Assembly: GCA_963804955.1 (NCBI GenBank)
Contig: CAWDSQ010000020.1
Location: 32,001 to 96,000 of the forward strand
From: an uncultured delta proteobacterium
GTDB taxonomy: Bacteria > Desulfobacterota > WTBG01 > CAIYCZ01 > CAIRTM01
Direction of reading: 5' to 3'
DNA length: 64,000 bases
Shown: positions 42,001 through 48,000 of the stretch, piece by piece
How positions within the stretch are numbered: the first letter of the stretch is position 1
How the letters are laid out: every line of letters begins with the position of its first letter
Made by a program: the position numbers

Positions 42001-45000
42001 CCTTATTGAATATGTCATGCACCTGATGGAAGCAGAGGGAATTTATACATACCGAACAGAAAGGCTATATGGTCGATGAACCAGGCGACCTGAGTTACCG
42101 TAATAATGCTGTGATAGGCTGCTATACGGCGGGCTCTGCGCAGCAGGAGGGCTGCAGGAAACAGCAGCCACACGACAAAGCCGATCACGATGGCAAAAAC
42201 AATCACGCTGTTTGTTCCCGGCAGGTTCATCTTTAGGGCCGTGACTCCCATCATCGGCAGCATGCTCTACCAGGAAATCAAGCAGCACTGCCCAACTCAT
42301 TATTAGCACAGAAAAATGGCTGCCATTGTCGCGATACGACCAAGCCGCTCCGTGATAAAGAAGCAATAGGCAACCGTGTACAGTGTTTCACTGAGCGTCA
42401 TTTTAGGTTTCCCTTCTACTAGTGCACAATAAAATTGAATTTGGCTTCAAAGCCAATATGTATTCTGCTACGTACACGATTTCTTTTCTGCTGTCAAGTT
42501 TGCAGGAGATTTCGCACGTTGATATTTACAGAAGTTGAAAATTTCCGATTGACAAGACAAATTCAATAGTCTAATTAATAGTTGTAAGTTCAACTAATTT
42601 TGATTTTTATATTGGACTTTGTCTGATGGCTTACATTTCTGTTATTTTCTAGAATACCAATAATAACTACAAAAGAATTAGCCTGGCTATCTGATCCATG
42701 GACTATACAGCAGAATTTAATCCCAATGATTCATTATCTTATCTCCTGGACAAGACAGCAAGAGCCCAGTTCTGCCGCTTGCAGAATGTTTTTACAAAAG
42801 CCAATTACGATATAACGGTTGAACAGTGGATGATTCTGCTGCTGCTTTGGAAAGAAAACGGCCAGTTTCAGCAGCAGCTTGCTGATGGTATGTGTAAAGA
42901 TAAAACAACATTGACGCGGCAAATAGACGGACTTGAGAAGCGCAACATTATTGTGCGTGTACCTGACAAAATAGATCGAAGACAAAAACGTATTTATCTA
43001 ACCACGAAAGGTAAAGATTTGGAACAGGAACTGATACCGCTGGGCATTGCAAACGGACTATGCGCAATAAAAGATATTCCCCCTGAGCATATTCAGATTT
43101 GCAAGGATGTACTGCGTAAAGTTTATGAAAATCTTATAAACAGGTTAATATTATATTGCATAATTAGTTGCATAGCCAACTGTGTGCGGCGCAACTAATA
43201 TAAGGAGATACAAATGGAACAAAGCGCAAAAAGATTTATAAATAAGCATATTATTATTACAGGTGCGGCAGCCGGCATCGGCAAAGGTGTTGCTCACCGA
43301 TTTGCTGACGAAGGGGGCAGGGTGGTTATTGCCGACAGGAACCGGGAATGCGGTGAGGCAGTTGCGAAACAAATTACTGAATCCGGTGGAACCGCTGTCT
43401 ATATTCCTGTTGATGTGGCTGATCCGGATTCAATAAATGAACTCATAAAAAAAGCAGCTGACGTTTTTGGGCCGATAGATGTCGCTGTGTCAAACGCGGG
43501 TATCAGCGAAACGCAGTCTTCAGCCCTTGATATTACCGTTGAGGAGTGGGACCGCGTGTATGACATAAATACCAGGGGGTCATTTTTTTTCTGCAAAGCA
43601 TGCGCTCAGAATATGATGGATAATGATATCAAGGGATCAATCGTGACCCTGGGATCAATTGTAGCGCGCAGCGCGAAAGGCATGTCGGGGGCGTACGCTT
43701 CTTCAAAAGCTGCAATCATCATGTTTACTAAAACACTTGCAAAATGCCTTGCGCCCATGGGCATACGGGTAAATTGTGTTGCGCCGGGGATTGTTGCAAC
43801 CGAAATATATAACGGTGTCGAAAAAGAGATGATGATGGAAAAAGATTCTTTTGCCGACTGGCTGGTAGAGCAGTCGATTGCAAGCGGCCAGCTGCTTATA
43901 CCCCGTTGCGGTACGGCAGGTGATATCGCCTGGCCATTGCCTTTCTGGCATCCGATGATGCAGCCTATATTACCGCTCAAAACTTAAGCGTTGATGGCGG
44001 CATAGACTGGTGTTGGTAATACTGTCACGTAATTTATTACGGAGAGTATCATGACGAAAGCTTTTGGAAAAGAGATCCCCTGGGAAAAACAGCGGGATAT
44101 GCTGATTGAAATGACCGCGCTGAAATTACCGATGCTTTTTCAATCTCTTGTTTCCGCGTACGGAGCAGATGAAGGAAAAAGGATATATGAAAAAATCTAT
44201 GAGGAAGGTTTCAAGCAACGCTCAAGCCGCTTCAAGGATAAAGATATTGGCGATATCCTGATGGCCGAAATAGACATGTTCCCGGCAATGGGCTGGAAGC
44301 TGTGGGTTGAAAAGGTGGAAGAAAAGGGATCTGTTGCCTGGTATGAGCATCTGGAAAAATGCCCGCATCTTGAGGCGACGAGAAAGTATAAATTGCCTGA
44401 CCCCTGTTCTCTTATCTGCGACATGGATTGCACCTTAGGCGAGAAATATAAAGTCGCACACTGGGAAAGGATGAAACACATGCCGGCAGGTGACAGCGAA
44501 TGCTGCTTCAGGATTACCCGGTGCCCATAAAATGTGTTTGCAGTTGCTGCTCATTGCTAGAGCAATCTGAATTAATAAATTTATATATCAGGAGGCGATG
44601 TTACACATGACTAATGAAAATGCAGCATCAATTTTTAAGGTGGATGAAGATCTTTGCATTGGCTGCGGGATTTGTATTGATGCCTGTCCCATGAAGATTC
44701 TGGAGATTCAGGACGGGCTGTGCATTATGACGGACCCGGAAAAATGCCTTGAGTGCGGAACCTGCGAGCGTGCATGTCCTGAAAAAGCCATTACCATTAA
44801 AGTTGGCGCCGGCGCCAAAGCGAAAGCAACGTTAAAAACGGGCACAGCGGGAGCCACGGAAAGCGCGCGGGCCAAGTTCTACCCCATCCTTGATAAACTG
44901 ACGGAAATGATACAGGTGGTCAGCCCGAAGCAGATATTCACCTTCGAGGGGCAGGATATCACGAGCCTCAATAATTTCGAAATCGATAACGAGCCCTCCT

Positions 45001-48000
45001 ATTACCGGGCCTATACGGCGGACAAAATCGATAAGCTGGGCATATCAAGCTCGCTTTTCTTCGGGATTATGACCGCGGATGTGATGGTCCTGACGCCGTC
45101 CAAAGAATATGATATCCCCTATTTTGTAATGGACTGGGATGAGTCAGAAGAGCATATATTCTTTATCTGCGATCTTATGCCCGGCGATGATCCGGGAAGG
45201 AATAACGACTATCTGAACAAATATCTGTATGAGCCACTCGAAGAACTGTACATGAACTACACCATGTCCATACCCGGTCTGAAAAACAGCGTGTTCCACT
45301 GGGTGCGGTCCATCCATTCCCCCTATATCATCACCGGCTCCATAGAAAAAACCAAAGAGAACATTGAAATGCTTGCCAACTGCGCCTGTGATTACCTGAA
45401 GGCCTGGATCGAAATATGGAAAAAGGCAGAGCCGCAGGACCCCAATTCTCCGTACATGAAACTCGTGCATGAGCGGAGAAAAAACATCCGGGCAATATAC
45501 AAAGAAAACGACCCCGGCGCCGGATCGCTGAACAAATACCTGGGCAAGGAGCTGGGGGCGACGGCCATTTCCATCATCGAGCCCTGATGTGGGCGCAACC
45601 GGGTTGTGCAGCATCATGATCAATGAAGGTTAAACAATTTAGATAAGGAGAACAGCCATGGCAGAAATACTACAGTTTGCAGCAGAGGCAAAAAAAAGTC
45701 TTGAAGCGCTGCTGCCCCTGCAGCCCGTTGCTCTTGATCCACAGCTGCAGCATATAAAAACCGAGGGTGGCTCTGTCGATATCGAGCTTTTCAAGGCCGA
45801 CAAGTTTGAAAAAATTGTTCTGTGCACGATAAACATCTTCGAAACCGAAGTGGTTGAGGCCACCGTTATGGCATGGCCCGATGAAAAGCACAATTTCCCC
45901 ATTCTCTGGGGCAATCTGACCATAGTCCCCTATGTCATGAACGTTCCTATCTTTGATTTCGTTCCCCTGATGGACCCGGTTCTCTATCAGGACTATGCAG
46001 ATACCTACATTGAAGGAGTCAACGAGCTGAAAGCAGACGCCCTTGAGCGTGCTCGGGGATACGGTCACTCAATAAAGACGTAGTGCTGCCGTCAAAAACC
46101 ATCTATACCCTGTCGCCGTACAGCCTTATTGCAAATATTAAGGAAGAGGGAATTCCTCTCGTCCCGCAGATCACGGATGCCTATATTAAGGCGTATATAA
46201 AGCTCTGGCAAAAGGCCGGGCCCGTGGAAAAGGCCGCTGATCTTGAGCATTACGCAAAAAAGCGGGCTGCAACACGCACTCTTATGAAGGGCAATGACCC
46301 CGGCTACCCATTTATGATCGATGCTTTCGGGGAGGAAAAAACGCATAAGGTTTTTGATATTATTTTTTAGTTTACGGCAGCCGGTGTGCGGCAGAACACT
46401 GAAAAATTTATTGCTGCACATGGACGTTTTGACCCTTTAAAAATGCAATTTAAACAGTTCTGTAAGGTGCAGGTAAAAAGCGATGCTGCTAGTGAGAACA
46501 GCGTGCGTACGATGAACAGGTTTAAGTGTGTTTTAATCGACACAGGGGTACTTACTCTGTATCTGCTTATAAATTTATTGCCGCTCAGAGTCCGTGATTA
46601 TATTCTGGACAGAATGTTTCCACCTATCCGGGATACTCGGCACTCAGCGTATTCAAAAGGTAAGGAGCACCGTGCATAAATCATGAAAAAATTTTACCTG
46701 AAAAAAGTGTGTTGAATGACTAAATAGTTACTGTTTCAAGCGACCTTTTTTAAAAAGGTATGCTTAGAAAAGGAGGGTGTGATTGTCTTTTCAATCGTAA
46801 AAAGTTGTATGGACACAAAATAATTTTTTCTAAAGGAGTACGGGACTTATGAGAAAAACCGAGATTAGAAAAAAACTCAGATTCTTGGCGGTAGCAGCTT
46901 CTTTTTTATGCATAGTGATGGGGTATGGGGTTTCATGGGCCGCAGACAGTGATGGTGACGGCATTGACGATGCGATTGACAACTGCCCCGCCATTGCAAA
47001 TCCCCAGCAGCTTGATGCCGATGATGATGGCATAGGAGATCTATGCGACACCACCCCCGGCTGCGGCGGCTGTGGTGTGGTTGCCTGTGAGGGTCAGGTT
47101 GATGCGGACCTTGACAATTGGGCTGATGAGATTGATAACTGCCCGAGCAGCTGCAATACCCAGCAGCTTGATGCCGATAGCGACGGCATCGGCGATGTGT
47201 GCGATACAGCTCCCGGCTGCGGGGGCTGCGGACCAGCCGGCCTGTGAGGGGGGGTGCGCAAAGGACCCTGAAGTAGTCGTAACAGCAAGCCAGTCTATAG
47301 CCGGCAAGTTCGATCGTTATACGGTGACCGGCATCAGGACGCCCCTGCCGCAGCTGCCCAATGTGCCCGGGTTCATCGGGGCATCCTATCTGACCATTGG
47401 AGATATTGACGGTGACGGCAGGCAGGATATCCTGAGCACATCCGGTGGCGGGCTGGATAACAATTTCACCACATCCGACGGTGCTGTTGCAGTGTACACG
47501 CAGGGCGCAGACCTTGACAGCTGGACACAATCTATTATTTATCCGGTTGGGACGACGGGCCTTCTTGGCTTCCCCAATGAGATGGTGCTGCGGGATATGG
47601 ATGAGGACGGTGATTTTGATATTATGGTTCTGGATAATTTTCTTGCCGGCTGGTTTACCCACTTCCCGGCAGGCATCTATTATCTGGAAAACAAGGGCGG
47701 CGATATTACCAGCAAGCTTAACTGGGAAATAAAGACCATTTTCCGGGGAGACGCAACACAGATCGGCTGGTCATCCTATCACCGGGCGCGCTTTCTTGAT
47801 ATAGACGGCGATGGGCTGGAAGACTTTGTCACCACAAAAGTGTGCATGTACAACTGGCAGAATACGTCTGACCAGTATGTGTGGACGGAATGGTGGAAAA
47901 AAGAGGGCAGCCCGGAAACCAGCCCCACAGCTTATTCAGGCCCTTATACTATAGGTGACGGCGCCGGATTTTTGTTTGAAATGATGGATATAGATGGAGA

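Follow-up and report, generated by a model that had tools for sequence, protein, structure and literature searches.

The DNA analysed here (the window) is a stretch of 64,000 nucleotides from a contig of an uncultured delta proteobacterium. On its plus strand, a row of genes headed by a MarR-family regulator includes one whose product (Fd-FDBR) joins a ferredoxin domain to a domain with the fold of the ferredoxin-dependent bilin reductases (FDBRs), and this gene is followed by a stand-alone paralogue (FDBR2). The features of the locus are listed below, with the evidence for each in brackets.

37914..40087, minus strand: GlcD-like FAD-linked oxidase and Fer4_8/CCG subunit (Pfam)
40718..42022, minus strand: geranylgeranyl-reductase-like flavoprotein (FAD_binding_3), 434 aa, divergent (Pfam 4.1e-14)
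42698..43198, plus strand: MarR-family regulator (MarR 1.4e-13)
43214..43987, plus strand: short-chain dehydrogenase/reductase (SDR), 257 aa (adh_short 1.5e-54)
44051..44530, plus strand: Cys-rich ATC_hydrolase-like protein (PF14196), 159 aa, directly upstream of the fusion gene (Pfam 1.9e-12)
44607..45587, plus strand: Fd-FDBR fusion gene, 326 aa (ORF, Pfam Fer4 and PF05996, 102 homologues, AF2 model, dN/dS)
44640..44801, plus strand: 2x[4Fe-4S] ferredoxin domain, residues 12-65 (motifs in translation, Fer4/Fer4_7, PsaC Z 10.3)
44802..44882, plus strand: Ala/Lys/Gly-rich linker, residues ~66-92 (gapped unconserved columns, low pLDDT)
44883..45584, plus strand: FDBR-fold domain, residues ~93-326 (PF05996 48.3 bits, VIA-align Z 25.4 to 6qx6)
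45132-45134, plus strand: D176 codon, motif VMDWDES (aligned with GtPEBB Asp-99)
45510-45512, plus strand: D302 codon, motif NDPG (aligned with GtPEBB Asp-219)
45658..46370, plus strand: FDBR2, a stand-alone FDBR-fold paralogue, 236 aa in relatives (PF05996, intact relatives, dN/dS)

Architecture and conservation of the fused protein

The longest ORF for Fd-FDBR runs from an upstream alternative ATG (44598-45587, plus strand, 329 aa). We prefer the second ATG, at 44607 (326 aa; 76607-77584 in the numbering of contig C20), because the AGGAGG box at 44590-44595, with a spacing of 11 nt, fits it better and because the N-termini of homologues agree. The N-terminal domain, with the motifs C17xxC20xxC23xxxC27P and C47xxC50xxC53xxxC57P in the translation, is a clostridial-type 2x[4Fe-4S] ferredoxin; its best NCBIfam match, HgcB_ferredoxin, reaches 61 bits, below the cut-off of 99. 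With the 329-aa form, Pfam returns Fer4 (1.4e-14), Fer4_7 (2.7e-12, residues 20-64) and Fe_bilin_red (PF05996; 1.3e-12, 48.3 bits versus a cut-off of 31), the last covering residues 163-319 and profile positions 66-217 of 228. Fd-FDBR reaches no NCBIfam equivalog cut-off, and no FDBR model appears among its best 25 NCBIfam families. The flexible linker of ~27 residues varies in length among homologues and is modelled with low confidence (pLDDT averages 61-65 over residues 71-90 and drops under 50 at residues 78-84). The genome-wide survey's note had described an intact fusion at 44607..45587 with the electron donor built into the reductase, and the full ORF, the Pfam matches to both parts and the complete FDBR fold all agree with this description. 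The gene is also under purifying selection, with dN/dS values of 0.11-0.19 against three orthologues.

Our homologue search retrieved 102 proteins (E <= 1.2e-44 for 99), and 83 of the best 95, from several independent sources, are fused by the rule that the protein has 295 aa or more and one or more CxxCxxCxxxC motifs within the first 90 residues. These counts match the survey's figures of 99 at E<=1e-44 and about 80 fused proteins. In addition, one 54-member cluster of the ESM Atlas carries both Fer4 and PF05996. Some relatives have split forms: at one locus (L040) a TAA closes the ferredoxin gene (73 aa), and a 240-aa FDBR gene begins seven codons on in the same frame; at another (L047) the ferredoxin gene likewise lies directly upstream of the FDBR gene; and in four genomes of the class a single in-frame TAA stands between the two parts. 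Overall, a two-cluster ferredoxin is tethered or adjacent to an FDBR in 24 of 42 class genomes. That ferredoxin and FDBR occur as adjacent separate genes in some relatives marks the fused domain as the probable cognate electron donor of the FDBR domain.

The earlier description of the family as widely conserved goes too far; it is almost wholly confined to one uncultured lineage, with 27 Fd-FDBR loci in a collection of 185,579 species and 166 clusters (50% identity, E <= 1e-3) among 1.84 billion representatives. The PF05996 fold is expanded in one uncultured class, where 32 of 42 genomes have 6-22 matches each, and in our phylum sample it was seen only in two families of that class. The genome studied here has ~14 FDBR-like loci. 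Because the central acid position varies among these paralogues (D, E, N or F), their substrate classes may differ.

The AF2 model of Fd-FDBR (39-row alignment; pLDDT 90.2, pTM 0.88) agrees with Foldseek, VIA-align and profile searches in placing the C-terminal domain with HY2, PEBB, PcyA and RCCR, as the survey had proposed. Foldseek matches in the PDB are HY2 6kmd (3.9e-11), RCCR 2zxk (4.2e-10), GtPEBB 6qx6 (4.7e-10), PcyA 2g18 (6.2e-10) and PebA 2x9o (9.3e-9), with TM to target of 0.63-0.76 for the top matches. VIA-align ranks GtPEBB first (Z 25.4, rmsd 2.1 over 227 residues), then HY2 (24.7), PcyA (23.8), RCCR (22.1) and PebA (21.8), with CPOX (17.9) after the FDBRs and RCCR. All of these structural neighbours bind tetrapyrroles except an algal FDBR-fold subunit of Ycf2-FtsHi (chains 8xqw_H and 8xks_P, Z 21-21.6). 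Profile searches of PDB sequences find 6kmd at 5.6e-11 when the whole protein is used; the FDBR domain by itself gives 6kmd at 9.9e-11 and 6qwq at 1.6e-7.

Across the 39 aligned sequences (44-95% identity), D169, D176, W177, E179, D189, D195, R234 and S238-P239-Y240 are invariant, as noted earlier, and so are D302 and P303. The earlier claim of eight invariant Cys stands for the second four (C47, C50, C53 and C57); the first four are kept in at least 90% of rows, and at least one row (P0086) is without the N-terminus. Profile alignment places D176 opposite GtPEBB Asp-99 and D302 opposite Asp-219, so the domain keeps both catalytic Asp of PebA/PebB-type enzymes. Excerpts of PMC6755814 describe these two GtPEBB residues as essential and conserved in most FDBRs.

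The downstream paralogue and neighbouring genes

In the window, two insertions of 1 nt each, near 46049 and 46067/46068, break FDBR2 into two ORFs (45658-46083 and 46083-46370; PF05996 1.2e-6 and 6.7e-4). The gene is intact at two related loci (L022 and L023), contigs of three runs have one base fewer at each of the two sites, and dN/dS is 0.05-0.17 in both halves; the insertions are probably assembly errors. Its homologues form 98 clusters of ~235 aa. An hhalign comparison with the FDBR domain of Fd-FDBR gives 99% (E 9.6e-18, 20% identity) and sets N86 opposite D176, giving an Asn at the central acid position, with the distal Asp kept. FDBR2 lies directly downstream of Fd-FDBR at 13 of the 27 loci and, by coordinate comparison, in 15 class genomes; in four others (G001-G003 and G036) the two genes lie apart.

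Co-folding of the Fd-FDBR and FDBR2 pair from L023 gave a score of 0.75, versus 0.11 for the best of three controls; of 157 solved complexes 116 come up to this mark, as do 2 of 215 mismatched pairs. Between runs at least 96% of contacts agree, with partner pLDDT of at least 88. In the predicted interface the two chains contribute corresponding elements, and residues invariant in the family take part (D195, R234, P239 and R290 in chain 1; D106, V108, P153, K201 and A204 in chain 2). The co-fold thus supports a heterodimer, although this result could stem from likeness to a solved FDBR-family dimer; RCCR crystallises as one. FDBR2 does not occur throughout: at E <= 1e-40 it is missing from six class genomes that carry Fd-FDBR. 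The interface residues nonetheless remain invariant.

Among the other neighbours, an SDR of the same cluster recurs in 15 of the 27 sources (it reaches no NCBIfam equivalog at its cut-off) and the MarR-family regulator in 11. The geranylgeranyl-reductase-like cluster is found in seven, its member here scoring 79 bits with GG-red-SF, below the cut-off of 158.8. The GlcD-like oxidase, split here into 39233-40087 and 38581-39351, and the Fer4_8/CCG iron-sulfur subunit (37914-38588) belong to clusters found in nine sources each. The ATC_hydrolase-like gene is not a core part of the locus because it occurs in only three sources (the window, L023 and L024). Other recurrent neighbours are TetR, AFOR, AKR-Fer4, thiolase and DUF1302/DUF1329/BNR/MMPL sets, these sets adjoining several paralogues; phytoene-desaturase-like flavoproteins and a nitroreductase lie near paralogues, as do, in the same genome, aldehyde:ferredoxin and 2-oxoacid:ferredoxin oxidoreductases. 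These redox and catabolic genes are of a generic kind and would be compatible with a wide choice of hydrophobic substrates. The tandem FDBR2, the paralogue expansion and the operon context are points beyond the survey's note, and they bear on function.

HemG-like Flavodoxin_5 and FMN_red proteins also recur beside FDBR-like genes, as does a family of 480-aa membrane-anchored proteins (c18). The c18 model (AF2 pLDDT 88.2) retrieves ferrochelatases as top Foldseek matches (1ak1 3.9e-9; TM to target 0.62-0.72), followed by SirB. The window has no c18-type gene; two of this genome's three copies have an FDBR-like gene within 8 kb. The connection with chelatases is partial: c18 adjoins Fd-FDBR in 4 of 27 sources, and an FDBR-like gene is present at 9 of 79 c18 loci in metagenomes (7 of the 36 that span at least 8 kb). 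Four c18 loci share the order c18, FDBR, FDBR on one strand.

Comparison with known systems

The PebB/HY2 lineage (GtPEBB, 6QX6/6QWQ; tomato HY2, 6KMD/6KME) provides the best profile and structural matches. Fd-FDBR has in common with it the alpha/beta/alpha sandwich, the central-strand Asp, the distal Asp of the D-P motif and the S-P motif, at 15-20% sequence identity. Unlike PebB/HY2, it has an acidic DWDESE(E/D)H motif on the central strand, a fused 2x[4Fe-4S] donor instead of a free ferredoxin, and a lineage without heme oxygenase. The survey had reported this last absence, and we likewise find PF01126 in none of 42 class genomes (21 of them at least 90% complete), versus 3 of 14 control genomes. 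GtPEBB Arg-215, four residues ahead of the distal Asp, is replaced by Tyr (Y298); this Arg marks A-ring reducers and is strictly conserved in PebB/HY2, according to excerpts of PMC6755814.

PebA and PebB offer a parallel in that two FDBR paralogues stand side by side with differing active-site residues, and the co-fold predicts a heterodimer here. Between PebA and PebB the intermediate is channelled. Fd-FDBR and FDBR2 are only distantly related to each other and to PebA/PebB, and Fd-FDBR carries its own ferredoxin. PEB synthesis is described, again in excerpts, as the work of two FDBRs in succession (PMC6755814).

Pre-PcyA proteins (Rockwell et al. 2023, PMC10151467; PMC13446030, 2026) are, in the portions of these papers used here, likewise FDBR-family members of non-photosynthetic bacteria, and a passage of the former mentions FDBR/RCCR-like outgroup sequences from Ca. 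Schekmanbacteria. Parts of both papers report that pre-1/pre-3 clusters combine bilin-binding globins and two V4R proteins with a heme oxygenase and an Fe-S protein, and that biliverdin is reduced; the Fd-FDBR locus lacks all of these partners. The terms 'fused', '4Fe-4S' and 'Desulfo' have no match in either main text, and 'Fusion' matches twice in that of PMC10151467, in one place for globin-B12 fusions. Our library searches found no paper on a ferredoxin-FDBR fusion, in keeping with the survey's view of the architecture as undescribed.

RCCR, a catabolic member of the superfamily, shares the fold (Z 22.1; profile E 2e-4), although Fd-FDBR falls short of the Pfam RCC_reductase cut-off (17.4 versus 24.9 bits). 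RCCR belongs to plants, where it follows a ring opening that requires oxygen. Ferredoxin-domain fusions also occur among other reductases of anaerobes. The Giardia nitroreductases, for example, have a similar layout, with the ferredoxin part joined N-terminally to a type of reductase whose donor is otherwise a separate protein (excerpts of PMC7938412), but as flavin nitroreductases they are unrelated in catalytic fold and cofactor. For anaerobic heme handling, portions of PMC10404700 describe ChuW/HmuW together with a reductase of linear tetrapyrroles, either ChuY or HmuF, the latter a flavodoxin-type anaerobilin reductase, and portions of PMC12583661 describe HmuS, a membrane-bound chelatase-superfamily enzyme that strips iron from heme. 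The recurrence of ferrochelatase-fold, Flavodoxin_5 and FMN_red proteins beside FDBR-like genes resembles HmuS/ChuW/HmuF. The analogy of the Fd-FDBR locus with HmuS/ChuW/ChuY would be functional only, and ChuW/HutW is below its cut-off here (best 152.8 bits versus 400).

Candidate functions

We put at about even the chances that Fd-FDBR is a self-sufficient, O2-independent reductase of the FDBR family with a tetrapyrrole-type pigment as candidate substrate. The ferredoxin domain would take single low-potential electrons from a cellular donor, for instance a 2-oxoacid or aldehyde:ferredoxin oxidoreductase, and pass them singly to a substrate in the FDBR pocket, with D176/D302 as the putative proton source, for a net 2e-/2H+ reduction of one conjugated C=C via a substrate radical. 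FDBR2 would most likely be a pseudo-symmetric heterodimer partner that performs or prepares a second reduction, as with PebA and then PebB. Most speculatively, the substrate would be a tetrapyrrole-type pigment that does not come from a heme oxygenase of the cell: perhaps a bilin taken up from outside, perhaps a derivative of a porphyrin or chlorin set free without oxygen, its metal possibly first removed by the ferrochelatase-fold proteins; the MarR-headed operon might then serve pigment catabolism, detoxification or as an electron sink. Together, Fd-FDBR and a second family member hint at an unstudied oxygen-free processing of heme- or chlorophyll-type pigments. The genome has no COX1.

Rather less probable, though a reading to be taken seriously, is a general ferredoxin-driven ene-reductase with the same architecture and electron path but a substrate other than a tetrapyrrole. 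In this lineage the expanded fold would act on further conjugated hydrophobic compounds, for instance lipid-derived acids, quinone-methide-like aromatics, or polyenes or isoprenoids, that are taken up and degraded or detoxified under MarR/TetR control. The number of paralogues per genome speaks for it (we know of no bilin pathway that needs so many), as do their varying active-site residues and the SDR, AKR-Fer4, AFOR, thiolase, flavoprotein, nitroreductase and DUF1302/DUF1329/BNR/MMPL neighbours. Furthermore, searches for heme oxygenase and ChuW/HutW yielded no source of linear tetrapyrrole and no tetrapyrrole-ring-opening enzyme. However, the characterised proteins of this fold that we retrieved all bind tetrapyrroles, the Asp pair and S-P motif of bilin reductases are kept, and family members repeatedly have ferrochelatase-fold and HemG-like Flavodoxin_5 proteins as neighbours.

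We consider it very unlikely that Fd-FDBR is an ordinary biosynthetic bilin reductase, converting biliverdin to a photoreceptor or globin chromophore in the manner of pre-PcyA, HY2 or PebA/PebB, whose heme oxygenase was missed. Its fold and Asp pair are those of biosynthetic FDBRs, two adjacent FDBR genes resemble pebA and pebB, and the genome is only 87% complete, but PF01126 is absent from all 42 class genomes. In this genome there is also no PHY domain and no phycobiliprotein-type globin, and the only V4R match is on contig C1, which has no FDBR-like locus. Fd-FDBR has no FDBR model among its best NCBIfam families, FDBR2 scores 28.7 bits with PebA against a cut-off of 263, and the paralogue number and catabolic-looking context also count against this reading.

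Finally, a non-catalytic ligand-binding or scaffold module with the ferredoxin domain as redox sensor would have precedent in the non-enzymatic Ycf2-FtsHi subunits and might suit an operon headed by a MarR regulator, but it is highly improbable given two catalytic Asp invariant at 44-95% identity, a low-potential two-cluster ferredoxin kept tethered or adjacent in more than half of the class genomes, and a neighbourhood dominated by redox enzymes.

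The ferredoxin-FDBR fusion gene and its active site

Ferredoxin-dependent bilin reductases (FDBRs) are cofactor-free radical enzymes that convert biliverdin into the chromophores of phytochromes and phycobiliproteins, and the formation of biliverdin itself requires oxygen. The gene considered here joins a ferredoxin to an FDBR-like domain (Fd-FDBR), and it is followed by a stand-alone FDBR-fold paralogue that we call FDBR2.

Window coordinates, strand and feature
44598 to 45587, plus strand: open reading frame of Fd-FDBR; gene start at 44607
45658 to 46083, plus strand: first piece of FDBR2 (141 aa)
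46083 to 46370, plus strand: second piece of FDBR2 (95 aa)

The genome-wide survey's note gave the fusion protein as 326 amino acids encoded at 44607 to 45587, and the window sequence agrees. An AGGAGG box is located 11 nt ahead of the ATG at 44607, and a start at this position yields the same N-terminus (MTNEN...) as that of the nearest database proteins in the alignment. Given this spacing and the shared N-terminus, the 326-aa form is the likely product. The homologue figures of that note were also reproduced, with 102 proteins found, 99 of them at E ≤ 1.2e-44. A chimeric or misassembled origin of the fusion is rejected because the same architecture recurs in many independent assemblies. Comparison with three orthologues gives dN/dS values of 0.11-0.19, and we consider the gene to be real, intact and constrained.

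Two complete CxxCxxCxxxCP motifs are evident in the translation (C17/20/23/27-P28 and C47/50/53/57-P58), Pfam places Fer4 in two stretches within residues 12-65 (E 1.4e-14), and residues 7-75 of the structural model match PsaC-type ferredoxins (VIA-align, Z 10.3). From its sequence, the N-terminal domain is predicted to be a clostridial-type ferredoxin carrying two [4Fe-4S] clusters. The Pfam family Fe_bilin_red (PF05996) matches over positions 66-217 of its 228-position profile with 48.3 bits (cut-off 31; E 1.3e-12). An AlphaFold2 model built from 39 sequences has a pLDDT of 90.2 and a pTM of 0.88, and low confidence is confined to the linker, where residues 78-84 fall below 50. Residues ~85-326 of this model superpose on solved FDBRs and on red chlorophyll catabolite reductase (RCCR) by both Foldseek and VIA-align. 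The closest VIA match is GtPEBB (6qx6_B, Z 25.4, rmsd 2.1 over 227 aa), then HY2 (6kmd, 24.7), PcyA (2g18_D, 23.8), RCCR (22.1) and PebA (2x9o, 21.8), with coproporphyrinogen oxidase ranking after these at Z 17.9; Foldseek E-values for the solved FDBRs range from 3.9e-11 to 9.3e-9. The model thus predicts the alpha/beta/alpha sandwich of solved FDBRs.

Catalytic residues were placed by aligning the sequence profile of the FDBR domain to PDB sequences. In this alignment, D176 of the invariant strand motif V-M-D-W-D-E-S stands opposite the Asp of G-L-D in GtPEBB, and D302 of N-D-P-G stands opposite the D-P shared by HY2 and GtPEBB. In GtPEBB chain numbering, the two aligned residues are Asp-99 and Asp-219. 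D176, D302, P303 and S238-P239-Y240 are invariant in an alignment of 39 homologues. According to PMC6755814, GtPEBB Asp-99 (PebA Asp-84) and Asp-219 (PebB Asp-231) are each essential and are kept in the structures of most FDBRs, and the fusion protein therefore appears to keep both the central-strand and the distal-loop catalytic Asp.

In the same paper, the A-ring-reducing PebB/HY2 lineage is distinguished by an Arg (GtPEBB Arg-215, HY2 Arg-252) that precedes the distal Asp by four residues (PMC6755814). This Arg was not found in the fusion protein, where the position is Y298, a Tyr conserved in at least 90% of the 39 aligned sequences. Among the best 25 of the 35 NCBIfam families matching at E ≤ 1e-5, there is no FDBR model (PebA, PebB or PcyA equivalog), and the other 10, with E-values weaker than 5.2e-6, cannot approach the FDBR equivalog cut-offs of 206-327 bits. 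PcyA is marked by His88 and Glu76 next to Asp105; its sequence 2g18 matches the target profile at an E-value of only 0.53, and the Pfam RCCR family (PF06405) falls short of its cut-off (17.4 versus 24.9 bits). FDBR2 reaches 28.7 bits on the NCBIfam PebA model against a cut-off of 263. Because the Asp pair is kept, Tyr replaces the marker Arg and no NCBIfam cut-off is neared, we judge that the enzyme probably works like an FDBR, yet belongs to no characterised FDBR subfamily.

Fused and split forms of the electron donor

Characterised FDBRs draw electrons from plant-type [2Fe-2S] ferredoxin. In PMC13446030, for example, PetF is the ferredoxin used. For the window's protein, no separate, freely diffusing ferredoxin needs to be named as donor, as Pfam finds the donor domain within the same chain.

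The uninterrupted fusion occurs in 20 of the 42 genomes of the class. In four others (G008, G017, G019 and G020), a single in-frame TAA separates the ferredoxin and FDBR parts, and in G018 and G035 the match is limited to the FDBR part (at E ≤ 1e-120). Two related loci show the split form directly. At L040, a gene for a 73-aa two-cluster ferredoxin closes with TAA and a 240-aa FDBR gene starts seven codons on in the same frame, while at L047 the two genes are in different frames.

A quick IQ-TREE phylogeny was built from 94 of the 95 best hits (the omitted one met neither length rule), three paralogues from the window's own genome and five FDBR2 sequences. Ferredoxin-associated FDBRs form one clade (SH-aLRT 96), with free forms scattered through it and at its base, for a total of six changes of which at least four are forced; some of these free forms may be truncated gene calls. 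The split loci, the genomes with an in-frame TAA and the scattered free forms together indicate that fusion and adjacency alternate within one orthologous group, which classically marks functional partners. We conclude that the fused ferredoxin is the cognate donor of the FDBR domain. Its linker is unconserved and variable in length, which indicates that the donor is tethered and not rigidly docked.

The FDBR2 partner and the expansion of the FDBR fold

FDBR2 begins seventy bases downstream of Fd-FDBR. In relatives it is a single gene of 234-248 aa, and in the window it is split by two 1-nt insertions in the region 46040-46075, with both pieces weakly detected by Pfam (PF05996, 1.2e-6 and 6.7e-4). 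Such a break could mark a pseudogene. Compared with short contigs from three sequencing runs of three studies, which were applied to the two indel sites alone, the window holds one extra base at 46049 and another at 46067/46068, and removal of both lets the frame continue as in the related loci L022 and L023. No RNA run was listed among the sequencing runs matching the sequence, and the best DNA run contained 0.15 of its words. Both halves also have dN/dS values of 0.05-0.17, and other genes of this genome are similarly split, among them those for AFOR, MMPL, AMP-binding and molybdopterin enzymes and, in the window, a GlcD-like and a TetR gene (38581-40087 and 40074-40699). Since the bases are absent from the contigs, dN/dS is low and split genes are many, an indel-rich assembly is the more likely cause, and this suggests that apparent pseudogenes anywhere in this genome call for caution.

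FDBR2 lies directly behind Fd-FDBR in 13 of 27 sources (26 related Fd-FDBR loci plus the window) and, by comparison of coordinates, in 15 class genomes. The two genes are apart in G001-G003 and G036, and a further six genomes of the class carry the fusion but no FDBR2 at E ≤ 1e-40. For FDBR2 itself there are 98 clusters of homologues, almost all of them ~235 aa long, and it is a distant paralogue of the target's FDBR domain (hhalign probability 99%, E 9.6e-18, 20% identity). It retains N-D-P-G and S-P-Y and has an Asn opposite D176, thus resembling HY2 at the central acid position.

Co-folding of the intact pair from L023 gave a score of 0.75, whereas the best of three controls scored 0.11; the mark applied is attained by 116 of 157 solved complexes and by 2 of 215 mismatched pairs. 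Between runs, at least 96% of contacts agree, and the pLDDT of the partner is no lower than 88. The predicted interface is pseudo-symmetric: each chain contributes the loop that follows its C-D-L-x-P strand, its H-W-V-R/S-P-Y region and the helix leading up to N-D-P-G. In the fusion protein it covers residues 195-200, 231-236 and 286-297, and it includes D195, R234 and P239, which the survey's note had named as invariant. This model supports binding of Fd-FDBR to FDBR2, and its score may reflect likeness to a solved dimer of the FDBR superfamily.

The genome that holds the window is 87% complete and has 10 PF05996 matches, eight of them above the cut-off. An iterated profile finds ~14 FDBR-fold loci, including 11 intact single ORFs. 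Besides the target, these loci (L009-L021) lie at C5:99314, C30:325783, C14:218657, C22:17101, C7:128977, C7:387833 and C32:76082, along with fragments. Three others of the ~14, at C7:503161, C22:110440 and C14:179155, were found by the iterated profile alone, and their membership is less sure because Pfam gives no match at 1e-5. Only the target carries a ferredoxin fusion. Three paralogues start with a hydrophobic, transmembrane-like stretch, and the central acid position among the paralogues is D, E, N or F. A GAF-domain histidine kinase gene (L010:3070-4914, minus strand, on C30) is located two genes downstream of one FDBR-like paralogue.

PF05996 matches occur in 32 of the 42 class genomes, at 6-22 each. 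In an even sample of 151 genomes from the phylum (E ≤ 1e-8), the five positives are the window's genome and four from families f1 and f2 of the same class, and the other 146 lack FDBR-like matches at this threshold. Of the 27 related records, 26 bear titles of Thermodesulfobacteriota, delta proteobacterium or Proteobacteria metagenome-assembled genomes. The exception, the Spirochaetota single-cell assembly of L033, bears an Fd-FDBR and FDBR2 pair at 54% identity, which might reflect gene transfer or a contig from a contaminant.

The absence of heme oxygenase that the survey reported holds, as PF01126 has no match in the window's own genome or in any of the 42 genomes of the class, and so a bilin supplied by heme oxygenase is not indicated. 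Searches of the window's genome also found no ChuW/HutW above cut-off, PHY domain, phycobilisome-type globin (PF00502) or COX1. No dsrA above cut-off was found there either, and for this reason we do not call the organism a sulfate reducer.

Gene neighbourhood and candidate substrates

Fd-FDBR is the fourth of five plus-strand genes spaced 15-76 nt apart; those for MarR, SDR and an ATC-hydrolase-like Cys-rich protein precede it in this order, and FDBR2 follows. Neighbours recurring over the 27 sources are as follows.

Genes near Fd-FDBR, with the number of sources (of 27) in which each occurs
SDR: 15
MarR: 11
GlcD-like flavoprotein: 9
Fer4_8/CCG subunit: 9
Geranylgeranyl-reductase-like flavoprotein: 7
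Aldehyde:ferredoxin oxidoreductase: 7
TetR: 6
AKR-Fer4: 5
PNPOx-like: 4
FMN_red: 4
Thiolase: 4
Membrane protein c18: 4
Amine-oxidase/phytoene-desaturase-like: 3

This setting is ligand-regulated, redox-heavy and catabolic-looking. It differs from the gene cluster of pre-PcyA enzymes (pre-1/pre-3), which, in PMC10151467, comprises heme oxygenase, an Fe-S protein, two V4R proteins and a bilin-binding globin; the target locus instead has MarR, SDR, the ATC-hydrolase-like gene and FDBR2, and the genome's sole V4R match lies on another contig. Assignment of the MarR protein as the bilirubin regulator BilQ was rejected, since its NCBIfam score (28.3 bits against a cut-off of 125) reflects merely generic MarR likeness.

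One recurring neighbour, c18, is a family of membrane-anchored proteins of ~480 aa whose N-terminus is hydrophobic and for which 426 homologues were found at 60-100% identity. It is found beside Fd-FDBR at L037, L044, L045 and L047, with none in the window. Two examples are listed here.

L014:7413 to 8822, minus strand: c18 gene of the window's genome (C7:390712 to 392121)
L045:5536 to 6987: c18 gene of a related locus

Some homologues are labelled 'protoheme ferro-lyase' by JGI, and the Pfam ferrochelatase family (PF00762) gives 26.3 and 17.8 bits against a cut-off of 27. An AlphaFold2 model (pLDDT 88.2) has 1ak1 as a Foldseek match at 3.9e-9, and ferrochelatases occupy ranks 1-44 among the matches listed, followed by SirB, with TM-scores to ferrochelatase targets of 0.58-0.72. 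The modelled c18 fold is accordingly predicted to be that of ferrochelatases. No canonical ferrochelatase was found in the window's genome, where the top score (32.7 bits) belongs to a c18 paralogue. A membrane-bound enzyme of the chelatase superfamily, HmuS, strips iron from heme anaerobically, according to PMC12583661.

Of the three c18 copies in this genome, two have an FDBR-like gene nearby, at 2.1 and 7.4 kb. When metagenome loci are centred on c18, 9 of 79 carry an FDBR-like gene (7 of 36 for loci of at least 8 kb), against an estimated expectation of roughly 5% for random loci of such a genome. In four of these loci, c18, the FDBR pair and an SDR gene occur in a row, with TetR interposed in three. 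The commonest c18 neighbours are Flavodoxin_5 (HemG-like) and FMN_red genes, both of which also flank FDBR-like paralogues in the window's genome, and a flavodoxin-type anaerobilin reductase is described in PMC10404700. The link between c18 and FDBRs is partial, yet it points in the same direction as the FDBR fold. Two genes encoding 379-383 aa proteins with an N-terminal Flavodoxin_5 (L015:3556-4695 and L018:3299-4450) are located upstream of FDBR-like paralogues with transmembrane-like starts, directly adjacent in L015 and with two small genes between in L018.

An FDBR fold that is wired to a low-potential two-cluster ferredoxin, paired with a paralogue and multiplied to 6-22 copies per genome in anaerobes lacking heme oxygenase points to a substantial, unstudied role outside pigment biosynthesis. 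The tethered clusters would deliver electrons stepwise while the Asp pair protonates, as in FDBR radical chemistry, and a heterodimer with FDBR2 might perform sequential reductions. We further speculate that the enzyme acts on a tetrapyrrole pigment in an oxygen-free process, a proposal to which we give an even chance. The main alternative, another conjugated hydrophobic compound, is possible but rather doubtful. It has to be set against the direction shared by c18 and the FDBR fold. Sets of DUF1302, DUF1329 (LolA-like), BNR-YCF48-like and MMPL genes adjoin FDBR-like paralogues (window 49879-51156, minus strand; L011:74-5915; L017:50-3478; L009; L021), and these may form an uptake or export system for hydrophobic compounds.

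To extend the tetrapyrrole proposal, this class of uncultured anaerobes might run a new oxygen-independent pathway that dismantles or respires environmental tetrapyrroles (heme, chlorophyll derivatives or phycobilins), which we consider unlikely as a whole. It would combine membrane-anchored de-chelatases with a ferrochelatase fold, FDBR heterodimers that use their tethered ferredoxin to reduce C=C bonds one after another by radical chemistry, and accessory flavoproteins. In that case, the bilin-reductase fold had a heme-oxygenase-independent catabolic role in anoxic settings, from which the biosynthetic FDBRs known in cyanobacteria and plants could have branched off later. Roles of FDBRs before, or apart from, oxygenic photosynthesis are thereby opened to direct testing. 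The fusion is a handy experimental reductase that needs no added ferredoxin, and it may offer a way into the study of anaerobic tetrapyrrole turnover in sediments.

In a literature search that covered few subscription journals, neither a ferredoxin-FDBR fusion nor FDBR homologues from these anaerobes were found to be described, and a word search of the main texts of the two pre-PcyA papers likewise gave none. The present analysis adds the split-gene evidence, the FDBR2 partnership with its controlled co-fold, the Tyr-for-Arg replacement, the counts for a class-restricted expansion and the diagnosis of the broken FDBR2 copy.

Scans of 42300-47100 for promoter-like sites (5 versus 8.9 expected) and terminator-like sites (13 versus 4.4 expected, most on the opposite strand or within genes) were not informative. 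A small ORF, c6 (42043-42366, minus strand), groups with a small membrane protein found in relatives, and its translation in the window seems out of frame. Downstream, 47072-48778 (plus strand) encodes a 568-aa FG-GAP/VCBS-repeat protein with a weak TcdB_toxin_midN match (1.3e-7) and a relative in 4 of 27 related loci. The G+C content is 0.42-0.50 over 42000-51000, which spans the operon and downstream genes, versus 0.52-0.57 on both flanks.
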